In this document: positions 1 through 8,939 of the stretch, piece after piece
Numbering within the stretch: position 1 is the stretch's first letter
Layout: each line of letters opens with the position of its first letter
IMG/VR virus record: IMGVR_UViG_3300028299_000002
Location: 1-21,969 of that record
Direction: 5' to 3' (one strand)
DNA: 21,969 bases
Source: a virus
Notes under the pieces: model-generated
Databases searched by the model: none
What the model saw: the letters and a program-made list of their open reading frames with translations, nothing else
What the model was told of the DNA's origin: nothing
Made by a program: the position numbers and the translations under genes

Positions 1-200
1 TTGCGAAGTCCCCAATACGGCGGACTTGTGACACACATATTGAATACACCGTCCGGTATTCTTGCTAATGTTTCAAGAGAATCACCATGTAGTATTTTAT
101 CATGGAAAGAAGATGCCAGCGAACCATTGTCTTGAGATAACGGCTTGAGCTGTTCTCCGTTTTTAGGTTTTTTGGTTATATATGGTGCTTGCTGTTCCAT
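1..200 (-). CDS. N4/N6 DNA methyltransferase, N-terminal part (runs off window edge)
   Basis: Hand translation from ATG 200: MEQQAPYITKKPKNGEQLKPLSQDNGSLASSFHDKILHGDSLETLARIPDGVFNMCVTSPPYWGLR. It has the GDS and motif IV SPPY pattern of beta-class MTases. The start lies in the loop of attC-like site 1. Confidence 0.9.
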   Translation of the reverse strand, partial: MEQQAPYITKKPKNGEQLKPLSQDNGSLASSFHDKILHGDSLETLARIPDGVFNMCVTSPPYWGLR

Positions 201-248
201 TTTGTCACTTCAAATTAATTCGCCGTATCTCAGACATAGTCGTTCGTA
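118..248 (+). repeat. attC-like site 1
   Basis: R'' AGCGAAC, spacer CATTG, left arm TCT[T]GAGATA[A]CGG; right arm CCGTATCTCAGA, spacer CATAGTC, R' GTTCGTA. The arms pair with two extrahelical bases. Confidence 0.85.
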
Positions 249-255
249 GTTCGCA

Positions 256-1098
256 TCAAAAGAGAACCTGCTGAGCCTGTTCAATTTCAAGGCGTTGTTT
301 AGATTTTTCGTAATATTCCAAGTTTTTTTCGATTACTATAAAATTCCGCTTTGACCTATGCGCCGCTATTGCCGTTGTCCCAGAACCGCCAAAACCGTCG
401 AATACCAAATCACCCTCGTTTGTATAAGTGCGAATGAGATATTCAAATAAACCGACTGGCTTTTGGGTTGGGTGAAGTCTAATTTTATCTTGAGTGTAAT
501 ATAAAAGGGTTGTTGGATACCCTTCAAATTCTTGAATATACGCAGCGTGACTTTTTCGCACTATTGCGAATGACTTACCATAATTACCATAATCTATACC
601 AGACCGCTTTCTACTTGATGGACGAAGTCCTTGTGGGTTGTATAACATCCTCCTGTTTGAACAATTCGCCGTTGTTCCCTTTGAGAATATTAGGATATTT
701 TCGTGCATCTTTACTGCTTTATTTTTAGCATTCATTTTATCTCCCGCCGTATTCTTTCCCCATATCCACTCATATTTGAACATCTTTAGATTGCTCATTA
801 CCAGAAAACTTGTGAACGGCTGGCTTCCGGTCAGCACTACCACGCCAGTCGGCTTTAATATCCGAAGTCTTGTTTCCCAGTATAGATTCAGGTCTATCTT
901 CACATCCCATTCGCACGCAGTTGTGTTATATGGCATATCCTCTAAAATCATATCGACGGATTTGGCTTCTATCTGTTCGCAGAGAGTGAAGGAATCGCCG
1001 TTGTGGATAGCATTCAAAGAGAGGCGACTACGAACCAGCGTTTGCAGATAACCCTTAGAGCTGTCCGACTCTTGCTGGTTTTTGGTTACTATTGGCAC
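256..1098 (-). CDS. N6/N4 DNA methyltransferase (beta class)
   Basis: Motif IV DMPY, HPTQKPVGL and motif I DGFGGSGTT. Likely GTG start at 1098 behind GGAGG (ORF track starts at TTG 1110); both starts lie inside attC-like site 2. Confidence 0.92.
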   Translation of the reverse strand: MPIVTKNQQESDSSKGYLQTLVRSRLSLNAIHNGDSFTLCEQIEAKSVDMILEDMPYNTTACEWDVKIDLNLYWETRLRILKPTGVVVLTGSQPFTSFLVMSNLKMFKYEWIWGKNTAGDKMNAKNKAVKMHENILIFSKGTTANCSNRRMLYNPQGLRPSSRKRSGIDYGNYGKSFAIVRKSHAAYIQEFEGYPTTLLYYTQDKIRLHPTQKPVGLFEYLIRTYTNEGDLVFDGFGGSGTTAIAAHRSKRNFIVIEKNLEYYEKSKQRLEIEQAQQVLF

Positions 1099-1156
1099 TT
1101 TCGCCTCCAATGTGACATTAGTAAATTATCGGGTATCTGATACGCCATCGTTCTGT
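1029..1156 (+). repeat. attC-like site 2
   Basis: R'' TACGAAC, CAGCG, TTT[G]CAGATA[A]CCC ... GGGTATCTGATA, CGCCATC, R' GTTCTGT. Extended R'' GCGACTACGAAC complements GTTCGTAGTTCGC at 242 with one bulge. Confidence 0.85.
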
Positions 1157-1157
1157 A

Positions 1158-1367
1158 TCAGAGCGGATTTTGCAACAATTCCCATATTTTTTGAGTACTT
1201 ATTTGTACCGCATTGAGTTGCGGTTTTTTATTATCAGTATCGGCGGTAAATTTTACAAGACAGGCAATTTTACGTTCACCCAACATTTTCCCTAAATTAA
1301 AAATATCGTCATCGTTTTCGGGTACAAAAACAATATCATTCTCTTTTTCATTACACGTTACTTTCAT
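1158..1367 (-). CDS. hypothetical protein (cassette cargo)
   Basis: ORF 1158..1427 in the track; ATG 1367 (MKVTCNEK) follows a purine-rich leader and is the more likely start. Confidence 0.6.
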   Translation of the reverse strand: MKVTCNEKENDIVFVPENDDDIFNLGKMLGERKIACLVKFTADTDNKKPQLNAVQISTQKIWELLQNPL

Positions 1368-1404
1368 CTTTTTCTCTCTTTCTGCTCTGACCAGCCCTTC
1401 GGGT

Positions 1405-1493
1405 ACAGAACCAGCAGATTGAGCCAATGCTTAGAGCACTGGCATGGTTAATATTTTTGATTGTTTTTGCATGGCTCATCTTTATCGTTCTAT
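1405..1493 (+). repeat. attC-like site 3
   Basis: R'' ACAGAAC, CAGCA, GAT[T]GAGCCA[A]TGC ... GCATGGCTCATC, TTTATC, R' GTTCTAT. TACAGAAC complements GTTCTGTA at 1150. Confidence 0.85.
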
Positions 1494-3058
1494 TCGTCAT
1501 CCCGCCCAAGATTCTTGATGGCTTGCATTATCGGTAAAACGACCTGCGGAACTATCGCATTTCCTAAACATTTAAGTCTGTCCACCCGCTTGGGTATCCC
1601 ATGAGCCACTCGTGGAACTCCATTTTCCCAATCATCATCCCAATTAATTAAAACAGGATTGGCATTTCCCCAGCAATATCTCTTCCACATCTCCTGGCTG
1701 TGCTGTGCCAAAAGTCGTGACAGTGTTTGCACAATGTCTGTATATTTTTTTGTTCGTTGTTTGTTATGTCTTGGTCTATATGGTGCGCCTGTAGGCTCGT
1801 TGTTTTCCGACAAGCCTCGCACGTCTTTTTCAGGTGTTTCCTCGCTCGCCAACTGTAACCATGCTTGGTAAGATTTATCTTCTTTGAGTTTGCACAAGTA
1901 AGTGAGCAATATTTCCTTTTTAGAAACGTGTTGTAATCTTCTAGGCGTCCGTTGAATCTTTTTCTCGTTATTAAAATTCCACAATGCTGACAATATTTCA
2001 CGGGTGTCTTTTTTCTCTTTGCCATCGTTCATATCTCCTCCGTATATCACATTAGTAAATATACACTCATGGGATATAAATGTCAAGTCTATATTTCTGT
2101 CCAACCAGGAGGAAAACCCATTAATAGTTCCACCCACGTCGGGTTCAATTGGCCAGTTTGATGTGTCGATTTTTTCACTTCCTCCGCCAATATCTTTCCA
2201 CCCTTCCCGTTTGGCCTTGACCCAGGGGTTCCAGCTCTGGGTGTCGGCCACATTTTCACTATGTCGTTCAAGTTGTTTTGATAGCCCTCCCGATTTACTC
2301 TTTTTGCTTGGCCGCTCCGATAATCCCGGCTTTGCGGTGTTGGCATTAGTTTTACATATCTCGCCAGTCCTATCGAACCGTCCGTACCCTTCCCGTTTAT
2401 TTTCCGCAAAGTCCCCGTTTTGTTCACTTTGAACTTGTCGTTTTTTCCAATTATTCCCCCCGTGTCCGCATCGCTTTTCACGGGAGTTGGCAACAATCCA
2501 GACTCTGTTCCTCCGATGTCCTGCACCGACACCCGCAGCCGGTATAATAAACGATTGGCAGGAGTATCCGATAGAGTCCAGGTCAGCAAGCACGTCGTCG
2601 AGTGCCAATTTGACGATTCCAGCAACATTTTCGCCAATAACCCAAGCGGGCCGGGTTTCCGATATAACTCTAAGCATCTCCGGCCAGAGATAGCGGTCAT
2701 CTTCTTTGCTTTTTTGCTTCCCGGCAACGCTAAAAGGCTGGCAAGGGAATCCCCCTGTAATAAGGTCAACTGTTCCGCAGGTCTTTCCGTCATAGGTTGT
2801 GATGTCGTCATGTATTGACACTCCTCTAAAGTTTTTCTGTAATACTTTCTGGCAGTATGGGTCTTTTTCTACGAATGATACTATTTCCAGACTATCTCCC
2901 CAGCACCATTTAGCAGCCAAAGCAAATCCGCCTATCCCTGAAAATAAATCTAACATTCTGAAAGGGCGGGATGAAATAGAACCATTAGATTGAGCCAACG
3001 ACGAAAGCTGTTCCTTTTCCATCGTTTCCGCCCTTTCACTGGTTATAGTTTCATTCAT
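1490..3058 (-). CDS. dcm: C5 cytosine DNA methyltransferase, main (alpha) frame
   Basis: Motifs I DLFSGIGG, IV GGFPCQPFS, VI ENV, VIII HRRNRVWIV and X RLKCLGNAIVPQV. The ATG is inside attC-like site 4. Confidence 0.9.
   Translation of the reverse strand: MNETITSERAETMEKEQLSSLAQSNGSISSRPFRMLDLFSGIGGFALAAKWCWGDSLEIVSFVEKDPYCQKVLQKNFRGVSIHDDITTYDGKTCGTVDLITGGFPCQPFSVAGKQKSKEDDRYLWPEMLRVISETRPAWVIGENVAGIVKLALDDVLADLDSIGYSCQSFIIPAAGVGAGHRRNRVWIVANSREKRCGHGGNNWKKRQVQSEQNGDFAENKREGYGRFDRTGEICKTNANTAKPGLSERPSKKSKSGGLSKQLERHSENVADTQSWNPWVKAKREGWKDIGGGSEKIDTSNWPIEPDVGGTINGFSSWLDRNIDLTFISHECIFTNVIYGGDMNDGKEKKDTREILSALWNFNNEKKIQRTPRRLQHVSKKEILLTYLCKLKEDKSYQAWLQLASEETPEKDVRGLSENNEPTGAPYRPRHNKQRTKKYTDIVQTLSRLLAQHSQEMWKRYCWGNANPVLINWDDDWENGVPRVAHGIPKRVDRLKCLGNAIVPQVVLPIMQAIKNLGRDDE
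1648..2025 (-). CDS. HNH endonuclease nested in the dcm gene
   Basis: CQHC...YCSLTC zinc motifs and CEAC...AHHIDQDITNNEQKNIQTLCKHCH HNH motif; own GGAG SD and promoter. Confidence 0.85.
   Translation of the reverse strand: MAKRKKTPVKYCQHCGILITRKRFNGRLEDYNTFLKRKYCSLTCANSKKINLTKHGYSWRARKHLKKTCEACRKTTSLQAHHIDQDITNNEQKNIQTLCKHCHDFWHSTARRCGRDIAGEMPILF
2058..2086 (-). promoter_or_regulatory. sigma70-type promoter for the nested HNH gene
   Basis: TTGACA (2086-2081), 17 nt spacer, TATATT (2063-2058), directly after the stop of the alternative-frame ORF. Confidence 0.65.
2089..2811 (-). CDS. overlapping alternative-frame MTase polypeptide (PTP repeats + motif IX-like segment)
   Basis: Nested ORF with three PTP repeats (LLPTPVKSD, LMPTPQSRD, MWPTPRAG) and terminal LNPTWVELLMGFPPGWT, the motif IX-like block missing from the main frame. 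Confidence 0.75.
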   Translation of the reverse strand: MTTSQPMTERPAEQLTLLQGDSLASLLALPGSKKAKKMTAISGRRCLELYRKPGPLGLLAKMLLESSNWHSTTCLLTWTLSDTPANRLLYRLRVSVQDIGGTESGLLPTPVKSDADTGGIIGKNDKFKVNKTGTLRKINGKGTDGSIGLARYVKLMPTPQSRDYRSGQAKRVNREGYQNNLNDIVKMWPTPRAGTPGSRPNGKGGKILAEEVKKSTHQTGQLNPTWVELLMGFPPGWTEI

Positions 3059-3085
3059 CGTCGTGCCTCATCTTTGTCGTTATAC
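2976..3085 (+). repeat. attC-like site 4
   Basis: R'' ATAGAAC, CATTA, GAT[T]GAGCCA[A]CGACGA ... TCGTCGTGCCTCATC, TTTGTC, R' GTTATAC. AATAGAAC complements GTTCTATT at 1487. Confidence 0.85.
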
Positions 3086-3140
3086 GCTCGTCGCTGCGCT
3101 CCCGAGCGTATAATGGCGGGCGCCTGAGCGTCGTTTTGGC

Positions 3141-3266
3141 CTATATTGGTTTAAGATGTTTTATAATTTCTTCAAGTTGTCTAACCCTAATTTCTAAAGA
3201 TTCTATAAGTTGATTTAAATCTCCTATCTCGTTATAAATTTGTTGAATGGAATCTGAGTCACTCAT
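3141..3266 (-). CDS. small coiled-coil hypothetical protein
   Basis: MSDSDSIQQIYNEIGDLNQLIESLEIRVRQLEEIIKHLKPI, behind a GAGGA SD; heptad pattern. Confidence 0.55.
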   Translation of the reverse strand: MSDSDSIQQIYNEIGDLNQLIESLEIRVRQLEEIIKHLKPI

Positions 3267-3353
3267 TTTTTCCTCTTTTCTTTTAAGCGCCAAAACTCCA
3301 TCGGCACTTGTTTTTCGTGTTAAAATCATCTGTCAATTATCGCTTGCGACGAC

Positions 3354-3415
3354 GTATAACCAGCGCATGGAGCATGAATCATCTGCGATGATTGCTCATG
3401 CGCCCGCCATTAGAT
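3354..3415 (+). repeat. attC-like site 5 (short, 59-be size; core ATT instead of GTT)
   Basis: R'' GTATAAC, CAGCG, CAT[G]GAGCA-TGA-ATCATC, loop TGC, GATGAT-TGCTCATG, CGCCCGCC, ATTAGAT; 62 bp. GCGACGACGTATAAC complements GTTATACGCTCGTCGC at 3079 with one bulge. Confidence 0.8.
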
Positions 3416-3461
3416 GCCTCACAAGATTTTACTGTCAAGTGAGGCATCCGTTCACTGTGGT

Positions 3462-3977
3462 TTAGTGTAGTTTAAATGGACTTACGACAATTTCCGGTTC
3501 AAGATATACCGGGCGCGGTTCGTTTGTTTCAGGATCAATCATCATCAACCAAGTTGCAGAAGATGATGTTGGCATATATAGACCATTCGGATCGGCTTGC
3601 GGAATTACTTCTGGGAAAACACCAGACCAGTCTCGCCCAATCATTTTATCTGCTTCGACAATTTTCATTGGATTAGTATATTGTGCCGAAAAGGGAACGC
3701 CAAACCCAATACATTTACCGATAAACATGAGTTTGCCTTGATAGTCAGATTTTATATAGGCATAGCATACCAAATCCTCTTTATCACATAGTTCAAAAAC
3801 CATTTTCATTAGTTTCTTTTGTTGATAATTGACAAGATTTGGCAAACCGACCTGACGATTGATTTCATCAAGGATTTGATTTGTTTGCGCGGTTTGACGT
3901 GTTTCTGCGGTCGGTGTTGTTTCAAAACAAGCGAAAAGAAAAAGACATGCGAAAAGAATTACGATTAGTTTTTTCAT
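3462..3977 (-). CDS. putative lipoprotein
   Basis: MKK + hydrophobic stretch + LFAC lipobox; PQADPNGLY motif. Confidence 0.8.
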   Translation of the reverse strand: MKKLIVILFACLFLFACFETTPTAETRQTAQTNQILDEINRQVGLPNLVNYQQKKLMKMVFELCDKEDLVCYAYIKSDYQGKLMFIGKCIGFGVPFSAQYTNPMKIVEADKMIGRDWSGVFPEVIPQADPNGLYMPTSSSATWLMMIDPETNEPRPVYLEPEIVVSPFKLH

Positions 3978-3978
3978 C

Positions 3979-4314
3979 TTAATAACCTCTTATTTTAGTT
4001 AGAAATTGTTGCAGTTTTATTTCTCGGATTTGACCAGCGTCAAACTCCGCAAACTGCATCCGTACCAAAGAGGCAATAGCCTCCTTGTCAGCAAGCGTTT
4101 CAGCAGTATTATATTCGTAATAATACTTTCCCAAATCTTGTACTTTCCCATGCACATAGGATTTGGTTTCCTCAAACACTTCGCGTTTGGCGTTCTCATA
4201 CTTCGGACGGAAGAACTTGAACATCTCCAATCCGTAGAAATTGAGAACGAAAATTGTCACCAAAAGAAGGATAAATCCTCCGACAATCAATCCGATCAGT
4301 TTACCTTTACTCAT
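3979..4314 (-). CDS. membrane-anchored hypothetical protein
   Basis: N-terminal TM helix (LIGLIVGGFILLLVTIFVL) followed by a helical domain; 1 bp from the lipoprotein gene. Confidence 0.8.
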   Translation of the reverse strand: MSKGKLIGLIVGGFILLLVTIFVLNFYGLEMFKFFRPKYENAKREVFEETKSYVHGKVQDLGKYYYEYNTAETLADKEAIASLVRMQFAEFDAGQIREIKLQQFLTKIRGY

Positions 4315-4359
4315 TTTTCTGTCCTTTCTATAATAGGGTTAAACATTGTTTAATGAGGC

Positions 4360-4473
4360 ATCTAACCCGCGTTTGCAGATAACGAGGTGAGCTGTTCACC
4401 TTGCTTGGATTCTTCTGGTTTTGTCATAGTCTCATTCATGTTTCACCTCGTATCTGATACGCCATCGTTCGCT
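4360..4473 (+). repeat. attC-like site 6
   Basis: R'' ATCTAAC, CCGCG, TTT[G]CAGATA[A]CGAGGTGA ... TCACCTCGTATCTGATA, CGCCATC, R' GTTCGCT. TGAGGCATCTAA is a perfect 12-bp complement of TTAGATGCCTCA at 3410. Confidence 0.87.
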
Positions 4474-5027
4474 GCTGCTGTCCACTGAATAGCCATTGCT
4501 TCTGCTATACCTGGATAGGTTCTGCTTCTCTCTTTCCACCTGTCTTCGCTTGGTGGCATTTTGTGTATTCGGTTTTCACGCCCATCCACCACATTAGTTG
4601 GTTTCAATAAAGGAAGATTTTTAAGCCACAAACAGGTTGCCTTTGTTTCGCCGTGTCCGAATTGCCAAGGCTGGATTATCTGGTCAGGTTTTCTGATTCT
4701 GGATGATATTATACTTATCGGGTTTTCGATTGCTATTTTTGGAATTGGAGAGTTCATCAAAAGTCTGACAAATTCAAGTGCCTCTGCCTGTTCCTCTTGT
4801 TTATCCTTGAACCACCTTGCACCGGACACGGCCAAGTGTGTACAAGGTGGATGGAATATCCCTAAATCAAATTGTTCTCGCTTTAATAATTCAAATATAT
4901 CCTCTTGAAAGTGCCATTCGGAGTTACCTTCTGTCGGTAACAGGTCACATGAATAGGCTTCGTGTCCTCTCTTACGAAATGCCTTTGTTACTATTTGACT
5001 AAATTCACACCCCACAATAACTCTCAT
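4443..5027 (-). CDS. short phage-type cytosine DNA methyltransferase
   Basis: RVIVGCEFS, SCDLLP, HPPCTHL (PC catalytic dipeptide), ENP, QPWQFGH. ATG 5027 overlaps the HNH stop (TAATG); the C-terminus reads into site 6. Confidence 0.8.
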   Translation of the reverse strand: MRVIVGCEFSQIVTKAFRKRGHEAYSCDLLPTEGNSEWHFQEDIFELLKREQFDLGIFHPPCTHLAVSGARWFKDKQEEQAEALEFVRLLMNSPIPKIAIENPISIISSRIRKPDQIIQPWQFGHGETKATCLWLKNLPLLKPTNVVDGRENRIHKMPPSEDRWKERSRTYPGIAEAMAIQWTAAANDGVSDTR

Positions 5028-5545
5028 TATATTCTCCATGTTTTGTTATTAGCAATTCTTGTTATTGTTGGTCTTGATACTCCATATTCCTTTGCAAGCA
5101 TTTTTTGAGAGATGGTTGTAAGTTTTTTTCTTATTTCTTGTACTTTGGATGGAGTTAATTTAGCGCCCCCATTTCGAGTATTCCAGGTTCCATTTTCAAT
5201 CTTATCATTTTCGTTTTCTGTATATGTTCCATAAGATAAATTAGATATATGGTTGTTTGCAGGATTACTATCTAGGTGTCTTATAACATTTCCACTTGGT
5301 CTTTTCCCAATAAAGAATTGTGCAACAAGATTGTGTATTCTAACTGTTTTTACTTTCCCACAACCATTACATAAATGAACTTGAAGATAGCCCCTTTTGT
5401 CAGAATAAAATGGTAAATCCTTCCATACATCTTTCGCAATAAACCCTTTATACGAAGCATGTCTTTGCCATCGACTTTGTAATTTTCCAAAATTAGAAAT
5501 ACGATATGCTGGAAATTCTGGAATAATTTTAAATTTTTCTTTCAT
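5027..5545 (-). CDS. NUMOD4-HNH homing endonuclease with C-terminal HTH
   Basis: YRISNFGKLQS (NUMOD4), RIHNLVA...IRHLDSNPANNHISNLSY (HNH) and AKLT...LAKEYGVSRPTITRI (HTH). Confidence 0.9.
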   Translation of the reverse strand: MKEKFKIIPEFPAYRISNFGKLQSRWQRHASYKGFIAKDVWKDLPFYSDKRGYLQVHLCNGCGKVKTVRIHNLVAQFFIGKRPSGNVIRHLDSNPANNHISNLSYGTYTENENDKIENGTWNTRNGGAKLTPSKVQEIRKKLTTISQKMLAKEYGVSRPTITRIANNKTWRI

Positions 5546-5583
5546 GGTAAATGTCCCCTATATTAAACACACGTACACGGCTT

Positions 5584-5612
5584 AATATAAGATAAAGGAT
5601 TAACTTGTACAA
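5584..5612 (-). promoter_or_regulatory. putative sigma70 promoter for the NUMOD4-HNH gene
   Basis: TTGTAC (5612-5607), 17 nt spacer, TATATT (5589-5584); overlaps inverted repeat TATATTAA/TTAATATA at 5559-5589. Confidence 0.5.
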
Positions 5613-5615
5613 GCA

Positions 5616-5696
5616 TTATCTTACATCGCCTTTATAGTGATTCCCTGGAATCTCAGTGTCCAGCAGATCGCAAGACCATGCGTTCCACCCCTTTGC
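5616..5696 (-). pseudogene. fragment of a paralog of the 4443..5027 methyltransferase
   Basis: Translates to AKGWNAWSCDLLDTEIPGNHYKGDVR*, which aligns by eye with RKRGHEAYSCDLLPTEGNSEWHFQEDI. Confidence 0.75.
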
Positions 5697-5765
5697 CTGG
5701 ATTCTGCGGGTTTTATCATAGTTTCATTCATGTTTCACCTCGTATCTGATACGCCATCGTTATGC
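5695..5765 (+). repeat. attC-like site 7, truncated (loop + right arm only)
   Basis: Near copy of the right half of site 6 (TCATTCATGTTTCACCTCGTATCTGATACGCCATCGTT identical), R' GTTATGC; no left arm or R''. Confidence 0.8.
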
Positions 5766-6146
5766 ACAATTCAAATGTGTTTCATGGTCTACCACATATA
5801 CATTTATCCCACGAAACATAGTACGTGATTTATAATTCGCTTCTTCATACGGCACAAGACAAATTTCATCATATTCTTGTGATAGTTTTTTATACTCTGA
5901 CCTTCCGAGATAAATTGAAGTTGGTTTTTTTCCTGTTTTAGATTCGTATCCACACAATAAATTTATTAATCTATCGTGCATAACCATTGGCTGCACCGAA
6001 CAGCCAGAGCTGTTCGATAGTATTTTTTCAACTTCACCTATTAAATCATCACATAGTTCTGGAGTCAGTGCGTGGTGTCCTTTTTTATCAGATATTGAAT
6101 AAAATAAATCTCCAAGTTCCTCAACTTGCTTGTCTGTAATTTTCAT
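5760..6146 (-). CDS. hypothetical protein, paralog of 6184..6483
   Basis: ATG 6146 behind AAAGGA inside the loop of site 8; shares LCxYExKTGxKPTxxYxG and YVVxxxxxLxCA with its neighbour. The stop codon lies in the R' core. Confidence 0.75.
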   Translation of the reverse strand: MKITDKQVEELGDLFYSISDKKGHHALTPELCDDLIGEVEKILSNSSGCSVQPMVMHDRLINLLCGYESKTGKKPTSIYLGRSEYKKLSQEYDEICLVPYEEANYKSRTMFRGINVYVVDHETHLNCA

Positions 6147-6189
6147 CGTCTCATTCCTTTCTGGCTGTCGGTGAGCCTGGTCGTTAGGC
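5978..6189 (+). repeat. attC-like site 8 (canonical arms, very long loop)
   Basis: R'' GCATAAC, CATTG, GCT[G]CACCGA[A]CAGCCAGA ... TCTGGCTGTCGGTGAGC, CTGGTC, R' GTTAGGC; 212 bp. GTGCATAAC complements GTTATGCAC at 5759. Confidence 0.88.
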
Positions 6190-6483
6190 GCAATCAAGAT
6201 AGCTATCTGAATTAACAACATATATATATGCACCGCAGTACATCGATCTCATTCTCTCACATCCACTTTCATCAATTTCATTTATTATTGGATTTAATAT
6301 TCTTAATATTTCTTTATTTTCATACTTGCCAACATATAATTTCGTTGGCTTTATTCCGGTTTTTGCCTCGTAATTACATAGTATTTCCAGTATTTTGTAA
6401 TGTAATTCGCGCCTAACCCTTGGCTTCACGTCAACGCACGGAGCTGTGGTTTTCTCATCAGGTTCATTGTTTTTAATAGTCAT
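6184..6483 (-). CDS. hypothetical protein, paralog of 5760..6146
   Basis: AAGGAG SD and ATG inside site 9; stop TAA within the core at 6184-6186. Confidence 0.8.
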   Translation of the reverse strand: MTIKNNEPDEKTTAPCVDVKPRVRRELHYKILEILCNYEAKTGIKPTKLYVGKYENKEILRILNPIINEIDESGCERMRSMYCGAYIYVVNSDSYLDCA

Positions 6484-6540
6484 TTCGTTCTCCTTTATAT
6501 TTGTTATTTTTTACGGCGTGCCTCATCTTTGTCGTTAGAA
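6411..6540 (+). repeat. attC-like site 9 (chimeric arms; last site of the array)
   Basis: R'' GCCTAAC (GCGCCTAAC complements GTTAGGCGC at 6183). Right arm CGTGCCTCATCTTTGTCGTTA is identical to site 4 but does not pair with its own left arm GCTTCACGTCAACG. Confidence 0.7.
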
Positions 6541-7125: not shown

Positions 7126-7268
7126 TATGACCCGTTCTTTTTGTTATACAATTCCGGTGGTACTATTTTTCTGCACTTTGGATTTGGACATTTAATATCA
7201 CCCTGTTTATTCGGGACGAGAAACTTCGTTTTAAACGTTGCGCCACATGAACATGTTATCTTAGCCAT
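7125..7268 (-). CDS. small zinc-ribbon protein
   Basis: Not in the track: MAKITCSCGATFKTKFLVPNKQGDIKCPNPKCRKIVPPELYNKKNGS (CxC...CxxxxC); overlaps both neighbours by a few bases. Confidence 0.65.
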   Translation of the reverse strand: MAKITCSCGATFKTKFLVPNKQGDIKCPNPKCRKIVPPELYNKKNGS

Positions 7269-8019
7269 TTATCCCTTCTAAAAGTTTTTCTATCTTTTCA
7301 ACAATCACCTTATATTTTCCACCATCTCCCTGGTTCACAATTAATTCCTCAAGTCGTTCAACTACATTACTTGAATCGACCCATCTATTTGAATGAGTAT
7401 GGATAAGACTTGATAGCTGTTGATATATTTGATTTTCTTTTTTATATCGTTCAAACAGCTCTGTATTAATCTCTAATCGACTTAATTCGGAGATAATCTT
7501 GCTGTTTACTTTATAGGCCAGGTTCCTGGTACTGAGTTTATTATTCAACCATTCTGTGAAATATTCTCTGCTCGAATTGAAGAATGGATATGGTCTGTCT
7601 TCTAATCTCGAAAATATGATGTATAGGTATAAATCAGCCGGTATATCAACATTTCTAAACAGACTTTTCTTCTTTGTATAGAATGATGATTTTTCCTGAT
7701 TATAGTATATCAAACCAACTTGCGGATCAATCTCAGATATATCAATTATTCCCGGTGGACACACAAAGTTGAACCGATGACAATATGGTAAATAGCCAGC
7801 CCACTTTTCATCGGCCAAGAAGTCATTGCGATTGACTTTGATTTCATATCCGGTGACACAGGGGTGCGCCCAACTTTTTTTAATTGCAACAGCATCAATT
7901 TTTAGCAATCCTGTTCCCCAGGATCGACCGGTCTTTACTTCAGTCAAAAAGTAATCCTTATAACTATCACCGTGTTTCTTTGCCAACGCACCCTTGATCT
8001 GACTTGCAGTCACGTTCAT
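7261..8019 (-). CDS. MmcB-like PD-(D/E)xK nuclease
   Basis: EVKTG...IDAVAI...GYEIKVNRNDFLADEKWAGYLPYCHRFNFVCP pattern; start at a TAATG overlap at 8019. Confidence 0.75.
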   Translation of the reverse strand: MNVTASQIKGALAKKHGDSYKDYFLTEVKTGRSWGTGLLKIDAVAIKKSWAHPCVTGYEIKVNRNDFLADEKWAGYLPYCHRFNFVCPPGIIDISEIDPQVGLIYYNQEKSSFYTKKKSLFRNVDIPADLYLYIIFSRLEDRPYPFFNSSREYFTEWLNNKLSTRNLAYKVNSKIISELSRLEINTELFERYKKENQIYQQLSSLIHTHSNRWVDSSNVVERLEELIVNQGDGGKYKVIVEKIEKLLEGING

Positions 8020-8939
8020 TATTTCACCACCGGGTATTGATGCCATTCTTTCCCGTCCAATAAATGACCAGAATTCTTTTTACCAACTTTGATTAATTCC
8101 TTCATTCCAGATCCGTATATTCCATCCTCACAGGCATATGTTCCCCACTGTTTAAAGAAAAACGGAATATTTGCTTCTATACATTGATCTCTCAATGACC
8201 GTACCCAATCCGGTTTCATCGGTCGTGATCCGTGACCAGATTCACCGCCGCAGATTATCCAATTGATAGGATTATGTGTTATAACGTATTTCAACATCTC
8301 TCTATTTACTTTTAATAATGCGGATTGATTACCACAAAATATATCACCGGTAAGTGCATTTATATTATATTCACTGTTGAATGGAATATTCATATTCAAT
8401 TCACTAAGCATTGGCTCTACACTCACAAAGCGCACCGCCGCCGGTATCTGCATTAGAACAGGAATACGCTGATCAGCTGTTTTCTGATTCTCGACCGTCA
8501 CACCCACCCAAATATGTTTCCATTGTGGTTGAGCAAAATTCTTATAATTGAATTCCAACATTCTCTCTGGCCGCTTGGTTAATATCAAGTAAGTATGGTG
8601 GTCCGCACCATACATGGGATTTGTCATATAATCGAATACTCTATCAATCAATTCTACCGGTATATCGGGATGAAACAGATCACCCATATATTGAATCCCG
8701 ATTCTTCTAGGTTTCTTCCAACTACTGAGTTTCTTCAATTCTTTATGAACCAGACGATACTCCATCTTCCGGTCATCAAAAGGGATATGATTGCCAAACC
8801 TGTTATTCATCGATTCGGCCCAACAATTTTTACAACCTTCGGATATTTTGGTACAGTGATATCCTAAACCAGAACTTCCCTTGATTTTTGTCTGGATCGG
8901 ATTTATAGTCTCATCCAGGTATTCTATTTTTGTACTCAT
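8019..8939 (-). CDS. phage Gp37/Gp68 (DUF5131) family protein
   Basis: CTKISEGCKNCWA, MGDLFH, LTKRPER, GVTVENQ, FVSVEPML, WIICGGESG and FFFKQWG. Confidence 0.92.
   Translation of the reverse strand: MSTKIEYLDETINPIQTKIKGSSGLGYHCTKISEGCKNCWAESMNNRFGNHIPFDDRKMEYRLVHKELKKLSSWKKPRRIGIQYMGDLFHPDIPVELIDRVFDYMTNPMYGADHHTYLILTKRPERMLEFNYKNFAQPQWKHIWVGVTVENQKTADQRIPVLMQIPAAVRFVSVEPMLSELNMNIPFNSEYNINALTGDIFCGNQSALLKVNREMLKYVITHNPINWIICGGESGHGSRPMKPDWVRSLRDQCIEANIPFFFKQWGTYACEDGIYGSGMKELIKVGKKNSGHLLDGKEWHQYPVVK

Follow-up and report, generated by a model that had tools for sequence, protein, structure and literature searches.

The gene cassettes of integrons are usually seen as promoterless, their expression being set by their position and by their own ribosome-binding sites, and the attC hairpins are viewed as obstacles to translation. 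The present analysis concerns a set of attC-like hairpin sites in a lake-water phage (IMG/VR virus record IMGVR_UViG_3300028299_000002), many of which carry within their loops the start codon of a short open reading frame (ORF). The window, that is the whole stretch of DNA that was analysed, comprises the first 21,969 nucleotides (nt) of this 90,580-nt contig, which is linear and estimated to be 58% complete. Nine such sites lie within positions 1 to 6,540, on the minus strand.

The best precedent for a short ORF within an integron recombination site is ORF-11/ORF-18 of attI1 (Hanau-Bercot et al. 2002, reviewed in PMC8876359), in which a Shine-Dalgarno sequence (SD) and an ATG within the site open a short frame that runs across the crossover point. 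The frame is closed by a TAG supplied by positions 3-5 of the incoming GTTRRRY core, or else extends into the 5' untranslated region (UTR) of the cassette, and it has been proposed to provide translational coupling to cassettes without an initiation region of their own (PMC8876359). Short ORFs in attC sites have also been found to relieve the hairpin block, as ribosomes from the upstream cassette translate them and prevent the stem-loop from forming (Jacquier et al. 2009, reviewed in PMC8876359), and cassette translation and untranslated gaps are known to set downstream expression (PMC11511950). In fused cassettes, such as those involving aac(6')-Ib, the SD and start are taken from beyond the cassette boundary, leading to variant N-termini (PMC8876359, PMC4670013). 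Clusters of attC sites lacking integron integrases (CALINs) have been described in phages, several of them with DNA methyltransferases, with no mention of starts or leaders in the loops (Qi et al. 2023, PMC9892861).

The array considered here shares with these phage CALINs the lack of an integrase, the methyltransferase cargo, and an AACG... / ...CG-T-T... core as in PH101_attC2 and P12002L_attC1; however, the sites of Qi et al. are 50-75 nt long, with loops too small to code. With ORF-11/ORF-18 the phage leaders have in common that they span the crossover, and that at site 6 and at a site at genome position 83279 the stop codon is taken from the core TAG. Unlike ORF-11/ORF-18, the phage cistron resides in the attC sites themselves, one per array position, runs through a hairpin arm, and is often fused to the cargo. 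The case of Jacquier et al. concerns individual bacterial attC sites read on the top strand, whereas the phage feature is family-wide, with a fixed ATGAAT, bottom-strand geometry and frequent fusion; and where the aac(6')-Ib fusions are one-off events in which the attC was lost, the phage fusions run through an attC that is still intact. Thus, a leader of the ORF-11 type is already known, and what is novel is its presence in the attC sites of a phage CALIN, often fused in frame. We put at roughly 0.6 the probability that nearly every site houses such an ORF-11/ORF-18-like leader cistron, feeding ribosomes to whatever cargo lies downstream.

The identity of the sites rests on their anatomy. On the coding strand every intergenic element opens with xxxxAAC-GA and closes with G-GTTxxxx. 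An energy-only hairpin scan was unspecific (about one match per 5 kb), and it was replaced by a template of site geometry, which requires AAC and 8-11 nt, then an 11-bp stem with its loop, then the 3' half of that stem (one bulged base after the first 5 nt, 6 bp, and a second bulged base at the end), and lastly 8 nt and GTT. Within the window this template matches sites 1, 2, 3, 4, 6 and 8; beyond it, there are matches at five sites at 81-90 kb of the genome together with a long-looped one (81973-81692), at five sites in each of two other loci (L081 and L116) and at one site in a third (L003), all of them on the coding strand. The bottom strands of attC(aadA7) and TJE1_attC2 (Qi et al. 2023, Table S3) satisfy it at 11/11 positions, as against 8/11 for the aadA7 top strand. 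Over 22 sites, six in the window and 16 elsewhere, AAC, GTT and a T at the first bulge never vary (22/22), the second bulge being C, A or G and not always G; the outer four core bases fit RRRY in part, and about half of the sites read GTTC... Seven of the 11 stem positions are Watson-Crick paired in all 22 sites, most with two or three pair types, which amounts to strong covariation, and a single G·T pair occurs among 242 stem pairs. The near absence of G·T pairs points to selection on folded DNA rather than on RNA. Folding z-scores for whole sites are weak (-0.5 to -3.5) owing to the long loops, and arm-only analysis combined with covariation was therefore preferred.

The cores also follow the cassette rule. 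In 18 of 20 neighbouring pairs the cores on the two sides of a cargo are complementary at 4/4 variable bases, and in the other two at 3/4; the complementarity often reaches 8-15 bp, and no such match exists between the two cores of a single site. For example, the 3' core of site 5 complements the 5' core of site 4 (GTATAAC), and the 3' core of site 9, GTTAGGCGC, complements the 5' core of site 8, GCGCCTAAC; upstream of site 9, the first in the array, no partner site was found. The cargo always lies on the strand that shows bottom-strand geometry, rather than on the top strand as attC cassettes would have it. On this anatomy the sites appear to be integron-type attC hairpins in a phage array without an integrase, that is a CALIN. 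An unpaired motif, RAACAGCTC, lies directly 5' of the 3'-arm stem in 19/22 sites, at a fixed distance from the GTT core and in any reading frame; to our knowledge it has no counterpart in canonical attC sites.

An SD followed by an ATG or GTG in the loop, from which the frame stays open across the core, is present in 15 of the 24 family sites, compared with 0/24 on the opposite strand and with 2.4±1.4 sites (maximum 8) in 500 shuffles; when the SD filter is dropped the count rises to 21/24. The ATGAAT start is common to sites with unlike arms, and in about half of the sites the leader is fused to the cargo, adding 22-56 residues to its N-terminus. In the window the starts at 200, 1098, 3058, 6146 and 6483, which the initial annotation had placed in the loops, do lie between the arms of their sites, and the frames run on through the 3' arm and the GTT core; the loop of site 9 is nominal, as its arms are unpaired (z +0.96) at the edge of the array. 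The same annotation had translation pass through the "left arm and R''", which holds for the reading itself, though these names follow the plus strand and the segment is the 3' arm on the coding strand. The leaders of site 4 (MNETITSERAETMEKEQLSSLAQSNGS) and site 1 (MEQQAPYITKKPKNGEQLKPLSQDNGS) each count 27 residues across the core (…NGS) and are fused to a C5 cytosine methyltransferase (1490-3058) and to an N6/N4 methyltransferase that runs off the contig, respectively. At site 2, 21 residues and the core Val, with GTT read as a codon, are fused to the N6/N4 methyltransferase at 256-1098. A site of the same type as site 6 is found at genome 81692-81973, with identical arms and about 170 extra coding nt in the loop, so that its leader counts about 90 residues before the core.

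Relatives of the cargo proteins outside cassettes show where the added residues end. For the 256-1098 methyltransferase, the alignments with 80 IMG/VR homologues begin at residue ~26, which is four residues past the core Val; most of these homologues lack a hairpin and have their initial Met no more than two residues away from there. In the site 4 protein the Pfam C5 domain starts at residue 33, the core being at residues 26-27, and the phrog_67 match of the site 1 fragment begins at residue 35. Three database proteins share the first 55 residues of the site 8 protein and diverge fully after ...PMV, the V being the GTT codon. The prediction that similarity should set in just past the core is thus borne out, and the leaders, whose presence in hairpin-less homologues would have spoken against the idea, are lacking in those homologues.

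The positions of stop codons are of equal interest. At 20 of the 24 sites with a long upstream ORF, the upstream cargo stops between -25 and +24 nt from the 5' AAC; at nine sites the stop is inside the core itself (TAA-C or TAG-AAC), and two ORFs extend as far as the left arm, where they either overlap the leader ATG or end directly beside it. At site 6, for instance, the TGA of the upstream methyltransferase is inside the left arm, 3 nt before the leader ATG. The TAA stops noted earlier at 5760 and 6184 fall, as had been proposed, within the upstream cores GCATAAC and GCCTAAC. Where leaders are unfused, they stop on the core TAG (site 6, whose leader had first been reported as unfused, and the 83279 site) or at the cargo start (TAAAATG in the L081 site L081a, ATGA in L081b and in the L116 site L116c). 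Scans for promoters and terminators found no excess over shuffled sequence. Together, the stop positions, the leader ends and the lack of a promoter or terminator excess fit a tightly coupled polycistronic message.

In such a message, the variable loop of nearly every site would act as a small cistron, with an SD, ATG AAT and 20-55 codons (up to about 90) extending through the 3' arm and core. Ribosomes that finish the upstream cargo at or beside the 5' core would restart 20-55 nt further on, in the loop, open the mRNA hairpin by reading through its 3' arm, and pass to the downstream cargo. A cargo that is in frame and lacks its own start would be made as an N-terminal fusion (sites 1, 2, 4, 8 and 9); otherwise the leader would stop on the core TAG (site 6) or on or beside the cargo start (ATGA, TAAAATG), and termination-reinitiation would couple the two. 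The translation-initiation module would seem to belong to the site and not to the cargo.

Table 1. Hairpin sites, their leaders and the principal genes in the array of the window.
Feature	Position	Strand	Description
Site 1	118..248	minus	ATG 200 in loop, weak SD context GAAGTGA
Site 2	1029..1156	minus	GTG 1098 in loop, 5 nt behind GGAGG
Site 3	1405..1493	minus	no clear fused leader
Site 4	2976..3085	minus	ATG 3058 directly after left arm; GAGG in left arm
Site 5	3354..3415	minus	62-nt hairpin, no leader; 5' core ATCTAAT, 3' core GTTATAC; z -3.5
Site 6	4360..4473	minus	core GTTAGAT; unfused 25-residue leader cistron 4439-4362, ends on core TAG
Site 7	5621..5765	minus	truncated: core GCATAAC, site 6-type left arm, SD GAGGTG, ATG 5731
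Site 8	5978..6189	minus	212-nt attC-like hairpin; 11/11 stem pairs, bulges T and C
Site 8 leader	ATG 6146 in loop, context AAAGGAA	minus	loop and 3' arm: 54 residues before core Val, 128-residue protein
Site 9	6411..6540	minus	first in array; site 4-type left half, 3' core GTTAGGC
Site 9 leader	ATG 6483, SD AAGGAG	minus	21 residues and core Val fused to 99-residue protein
N6/N4 methyltransferase	3-200	minus	runs off contig
N6/N4 methyltransferase	256-1098	minus	
C5 methyltransferase	1490-3058	minus	522 residues
phrog_757 methyltransferase	4443-5039	minus	
HNH endonuclease	5027-5545	minus	

The chief alternative, and the one implied when the initial annotation spoke of a cassette's own gene, is that hairpin, ribosome-binding site, start and leader form one mobile cassette together with the gene, so that the cargo brings its own initiation module. 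The bottom-strand geometry on the coding strand lends itself to this view, since cleavage at the 5' AA|C would keep the hairpin together with the downstream cargo, and breaks at the 5' core are indeed seen (site 4 versus L081d, site 6 versus the 81973 site, and the loose ends at 3082 and 3408 described below). The pairing of hairpins with cargos, however, argues the other way. The hairpin and leader of site 4 are 97% identical to L081 1025-1134, with the C5 methyltransferase downstream here and a DPPY methyltransferase there, and the upstream cargos differ too. The site 8 hairpin recurs at 203/204 identical nt in the loci L145, L146 and L147, with four different cargos in all; the flanks share no similarity, beginning with the base before TAAC on one side and the base after GGTT on the other, and the sole change is the second bulged base.

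Population evidence came from Logan contigs of three other lake samples (runs X2-X4), which break exactly at the cores. The site 6 hairpin has two other cargos downstream in X2-X4 (loose ends at 4364), which makes three cargos overall; the site 8 hairpin likewise has two others (5980), and that of site 4 is joined to the L081 cargo (2977). Upstream cargos are swapped at 3082 and 3408, and other loops occur between the same arms (6013; 6018 joined to 6153). The same cargo is also met behind different hairpins: the site 1 methyltransferase stands behind a hairpin like that of 83279, in the same frame, in X2-X4 (loose end 125), and a PAPS-reductase-like cargo follows the L081a hairpin in L081 but the site 6 hairpin in X3/X4, with both flanking hairpins different. 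Similarly, the segment 1133-1414 with its 89-residue cargo recurs at genome 81950-82231 with 99.3% identity behind an unrelated upstream hairpin, the duplication beginning at CTGGTTCTGT and ending past the left arm of the next site. One hairpin and leader may thus precede two to four unrelated cargos, split exactly after GGTT. Instead of each cargo being linked to its own 3' site, as in attC arrays, hairpin bodies show independent assortment from the cargos on either side, and this makes the cassette-borne module unlikely in our view. Of the claim that the sites are portable initiation modules, the part that stands is that a site carries an SD, ATGAAT and an open frame; the tie to the cassette's own gene finds no support in the reassortment of hairpins and cargos.

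From these comparisons hairpin bodies, loops and cargos, the last with the complementary outer core bases, appear to assort independently, with both cores serving as junctions. As both borders behave in this way, the data single out neither flank as the one that moves with the hairpin, and the question is raised as to which strand and which end of the site recombine. Use of both strands over time may reconcile the data.

The cargo of site 3 deserves separate mention. It has its own SD and ATG (1367), 40 nt past the core, in a conserved 5' UTR that consists of the 3' core GTTCTGTA, a small CCCGAAGGG hairpin, the SD and ATGAAAGTA (window 1367-1414; genome 82184-82231; L081 2861-2925). In L081 this 5' UTR precedes an ORF for a 60-residue membrane protein, where the window has 89 residues, and conservation extends to the corresponding 3' end, CCGCTCTGATACAGAAC; here the ends of the cassette are retained while the inner gene is replaced.

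A second alternative is that the loop ORFs are incidental: A-rich loops would be open by chance, the true starts would lie past the core, and the extensions would be gene-calling artefacts. An in-frame ATG or TTG is found near the natural N-terminus in sites 4, 8 and 2, the cargo of site 3 and of several unfused sites has its own SD and ATG, and the SD of the leader is often buried in the stem. Chance, however, accounts poorly for the excess of open leaders over both the other strand and the shuffles or for the conserved ATGAAT; in addition, sites 1 and 9 offer no alternative start before the conserved domain (at site 1, before the GD motif), and the unfused leaders end precisely on a core TAG or in ATGA overlaps. 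We therefore consider incidental ORFs distinctly improbable.

Nevertheless, several points weigh against the site-embedded leader cistron. The possible starts past the core are an ATG at residue 35 of the site 4 protein, ATG GTT ATG at the core of site 8, and a TTG at residue 28 at site 2, none of them with a good SD. Folded as RNA, the sites reach -18 to -66 kcal/mol, the AUG being in the loop and the SD in either the loop or the inner stem; at site 6, the 81335 site, L081a and L116a (the latter in L116) the SD is buried in the inner stem (P(unpaired) <=0.12), and an SD so placed implies that initiation would need co-transcriptional loading or an upstream ribosome. That leaders are translated and raise the expression of downstream cargo is a deduction from the sequence: contigs from an RNA run (X6) cover 1290-1598, 3455-4529 and other stretches, and as contigs of an RNA library they are no proof of transcription or of its ends. 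Recombination by an integron integrase is likewise deduced, from site anatomy and population junctions, and neither a tyrosine recombinase nor an integron integrase was found in the 90.6-kb contig or in L116, L081 and L003, which are mostly fragments. Lastly, canonical bottom-strand cleavage predicts linkage between a hairpin and its downstream cargo, a linkage that the data do not show.

It might also be supposed that the leader serves unrelated proteins as a common functional peptide tag, with a part in capsid loading or export, for instance. In its favour, the 55-residue site 8 leader is identical on four cargos, and the 3' arm of the L081 site L081e codes for the hydrophobic core of a signal peptide. 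Identity at 203/204 nt, on the other hand, indicates recent exchange and not selection on the peptide, and some leaders are unfused. Moreover, an EQL..L....GS leader peptide, as first proposed to be shared among the proteins, gives way on closer inspection to conserved site DNA: the motif AACAGCTC reads EQL, (D/N)SS or TAL according to frame, and leaders occur in each of the three frames relative to GTT. Since the same site DNA is read in all three frames to yield unrelated peptides, the likeness of the leaders reflects DNA conservation of the site; a shared N-terminal targeting peptide would be conserved as peptide and not as DNA. A tag is thus less probable still than incidental ORFs. That the hairpins act as RNA, for example in processing or as translational operators of an early operon, and not as DNA recombination sites is scarcely credible, for although their RNA folds are stable with the AUG in the loop, the stems covary strongly with hardly any G·T pairs, cores complement each other across each cargo, the junctions seen in populations coincide exactly with the cores, and no Rfam family matches the sites.

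If the leader cistron is indeed part of the site, the hairpin would be turned from an obstacle into a solution, in that the site brings the SD, start and leader, and the early transcript would be translated without gaps. A start-less cargo would be expressed wherever it is placed, given a fitting frame, and this would explain how anti-restriction methyltransferases can be swapped rapidly without new expression signals having to evolve. One would also predict N-terminally extended chimeric proteins, and gene callers already report such proteins. A bolder extension is that, with the crossover core inside an ORF, each exchange makes a chimeric protein, and that long loops code for functional domains, the array being a domain-shuffling device. 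The modules relevant to this are the 55-residue site 8 leader, which precedes four unrelated C-terminal parts, and the leader of about 90 residues at the 81973 site; we consider the extension doubtful. Shufflons offer a parallel, in which the Rci recombinase acts in frame to join a constant N-terminal part to alternative C-terminal parts of PilV. Shufflons, however, rely on inversion between short repeats in one gene, whereas the phage swaps separate cargo genes, mostly complete enzymes, at folded hairpins.

The site family appears to be rare. Two scans of IMG/VR with family-specific DNA patterns recovered, beyond this genome, L081 and L116 only, the other 62 loci being single chance matches. 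Among the matches listed from a scan of 185,579 prokaryote genomes there were single matches only, with the site geometry in 0 of 80 loci examined and no host integron, and a search with the upstream protein at 7261-8046 found no syntenic relatives. Within this contig a second array of the same family is present at 81-90 kb. The 3' core of site 1, GTTCGCT (window 118-125), complements a 5' core AGCGAAC at genome 89823-89829, near the contig end, a hint that both arrays could belong to a single region in a circular or permuted genome; against a circle, a direct join of the contig ends does not extend the site 1 methyltransferase.

As for the genomic setting, the minus strand carries every gene in 1-21,300, and the array is followed at 7.2-21 kb by a module of replication and early genes, among them DnaC-like, DnaD-like and exonuclease genes. 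Several small proteins are encoded in 1-6,540 besides the genes of Table 1. The C5 methyltransferase gene is unusual: motifs I-VIII of its frame fall within residues 33 to ~195 and motif X within 478-517, a second-frame ORF inside it (2089-2811, 240 residues) matches phrog_1008 'DNA methyltransferase' (E 1.7e-35), and a third-frame ORF (1648-2025) encodes an HNH endonuclease. Neither a group I intron nor any other Rfam family was detected at 1490-3058, and the gene is either a mosaic or frameshifted gene or a case of genuine overlapping genes.

Endonuclease genes recur at site 7, a remnant 93% identical to 4401-4469 that is without 3' arm and 3' core. Its 36-residue ORF extends to 5621 and is followed by the HNH gene (5545-5027), which suggests that the endonuclease gene took the place of half of the site; the stop of the HNH gene overlaps the start of the phrog_757 methyltransferase. 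In L081, on the minus strand at 2440-2560, a methyltransferase on the L081c leader breaks off after ...NYYDLAIV and is followed by a separate gene and then by a second methyltransferase start, in what looks like another insertion into a cargo gene.

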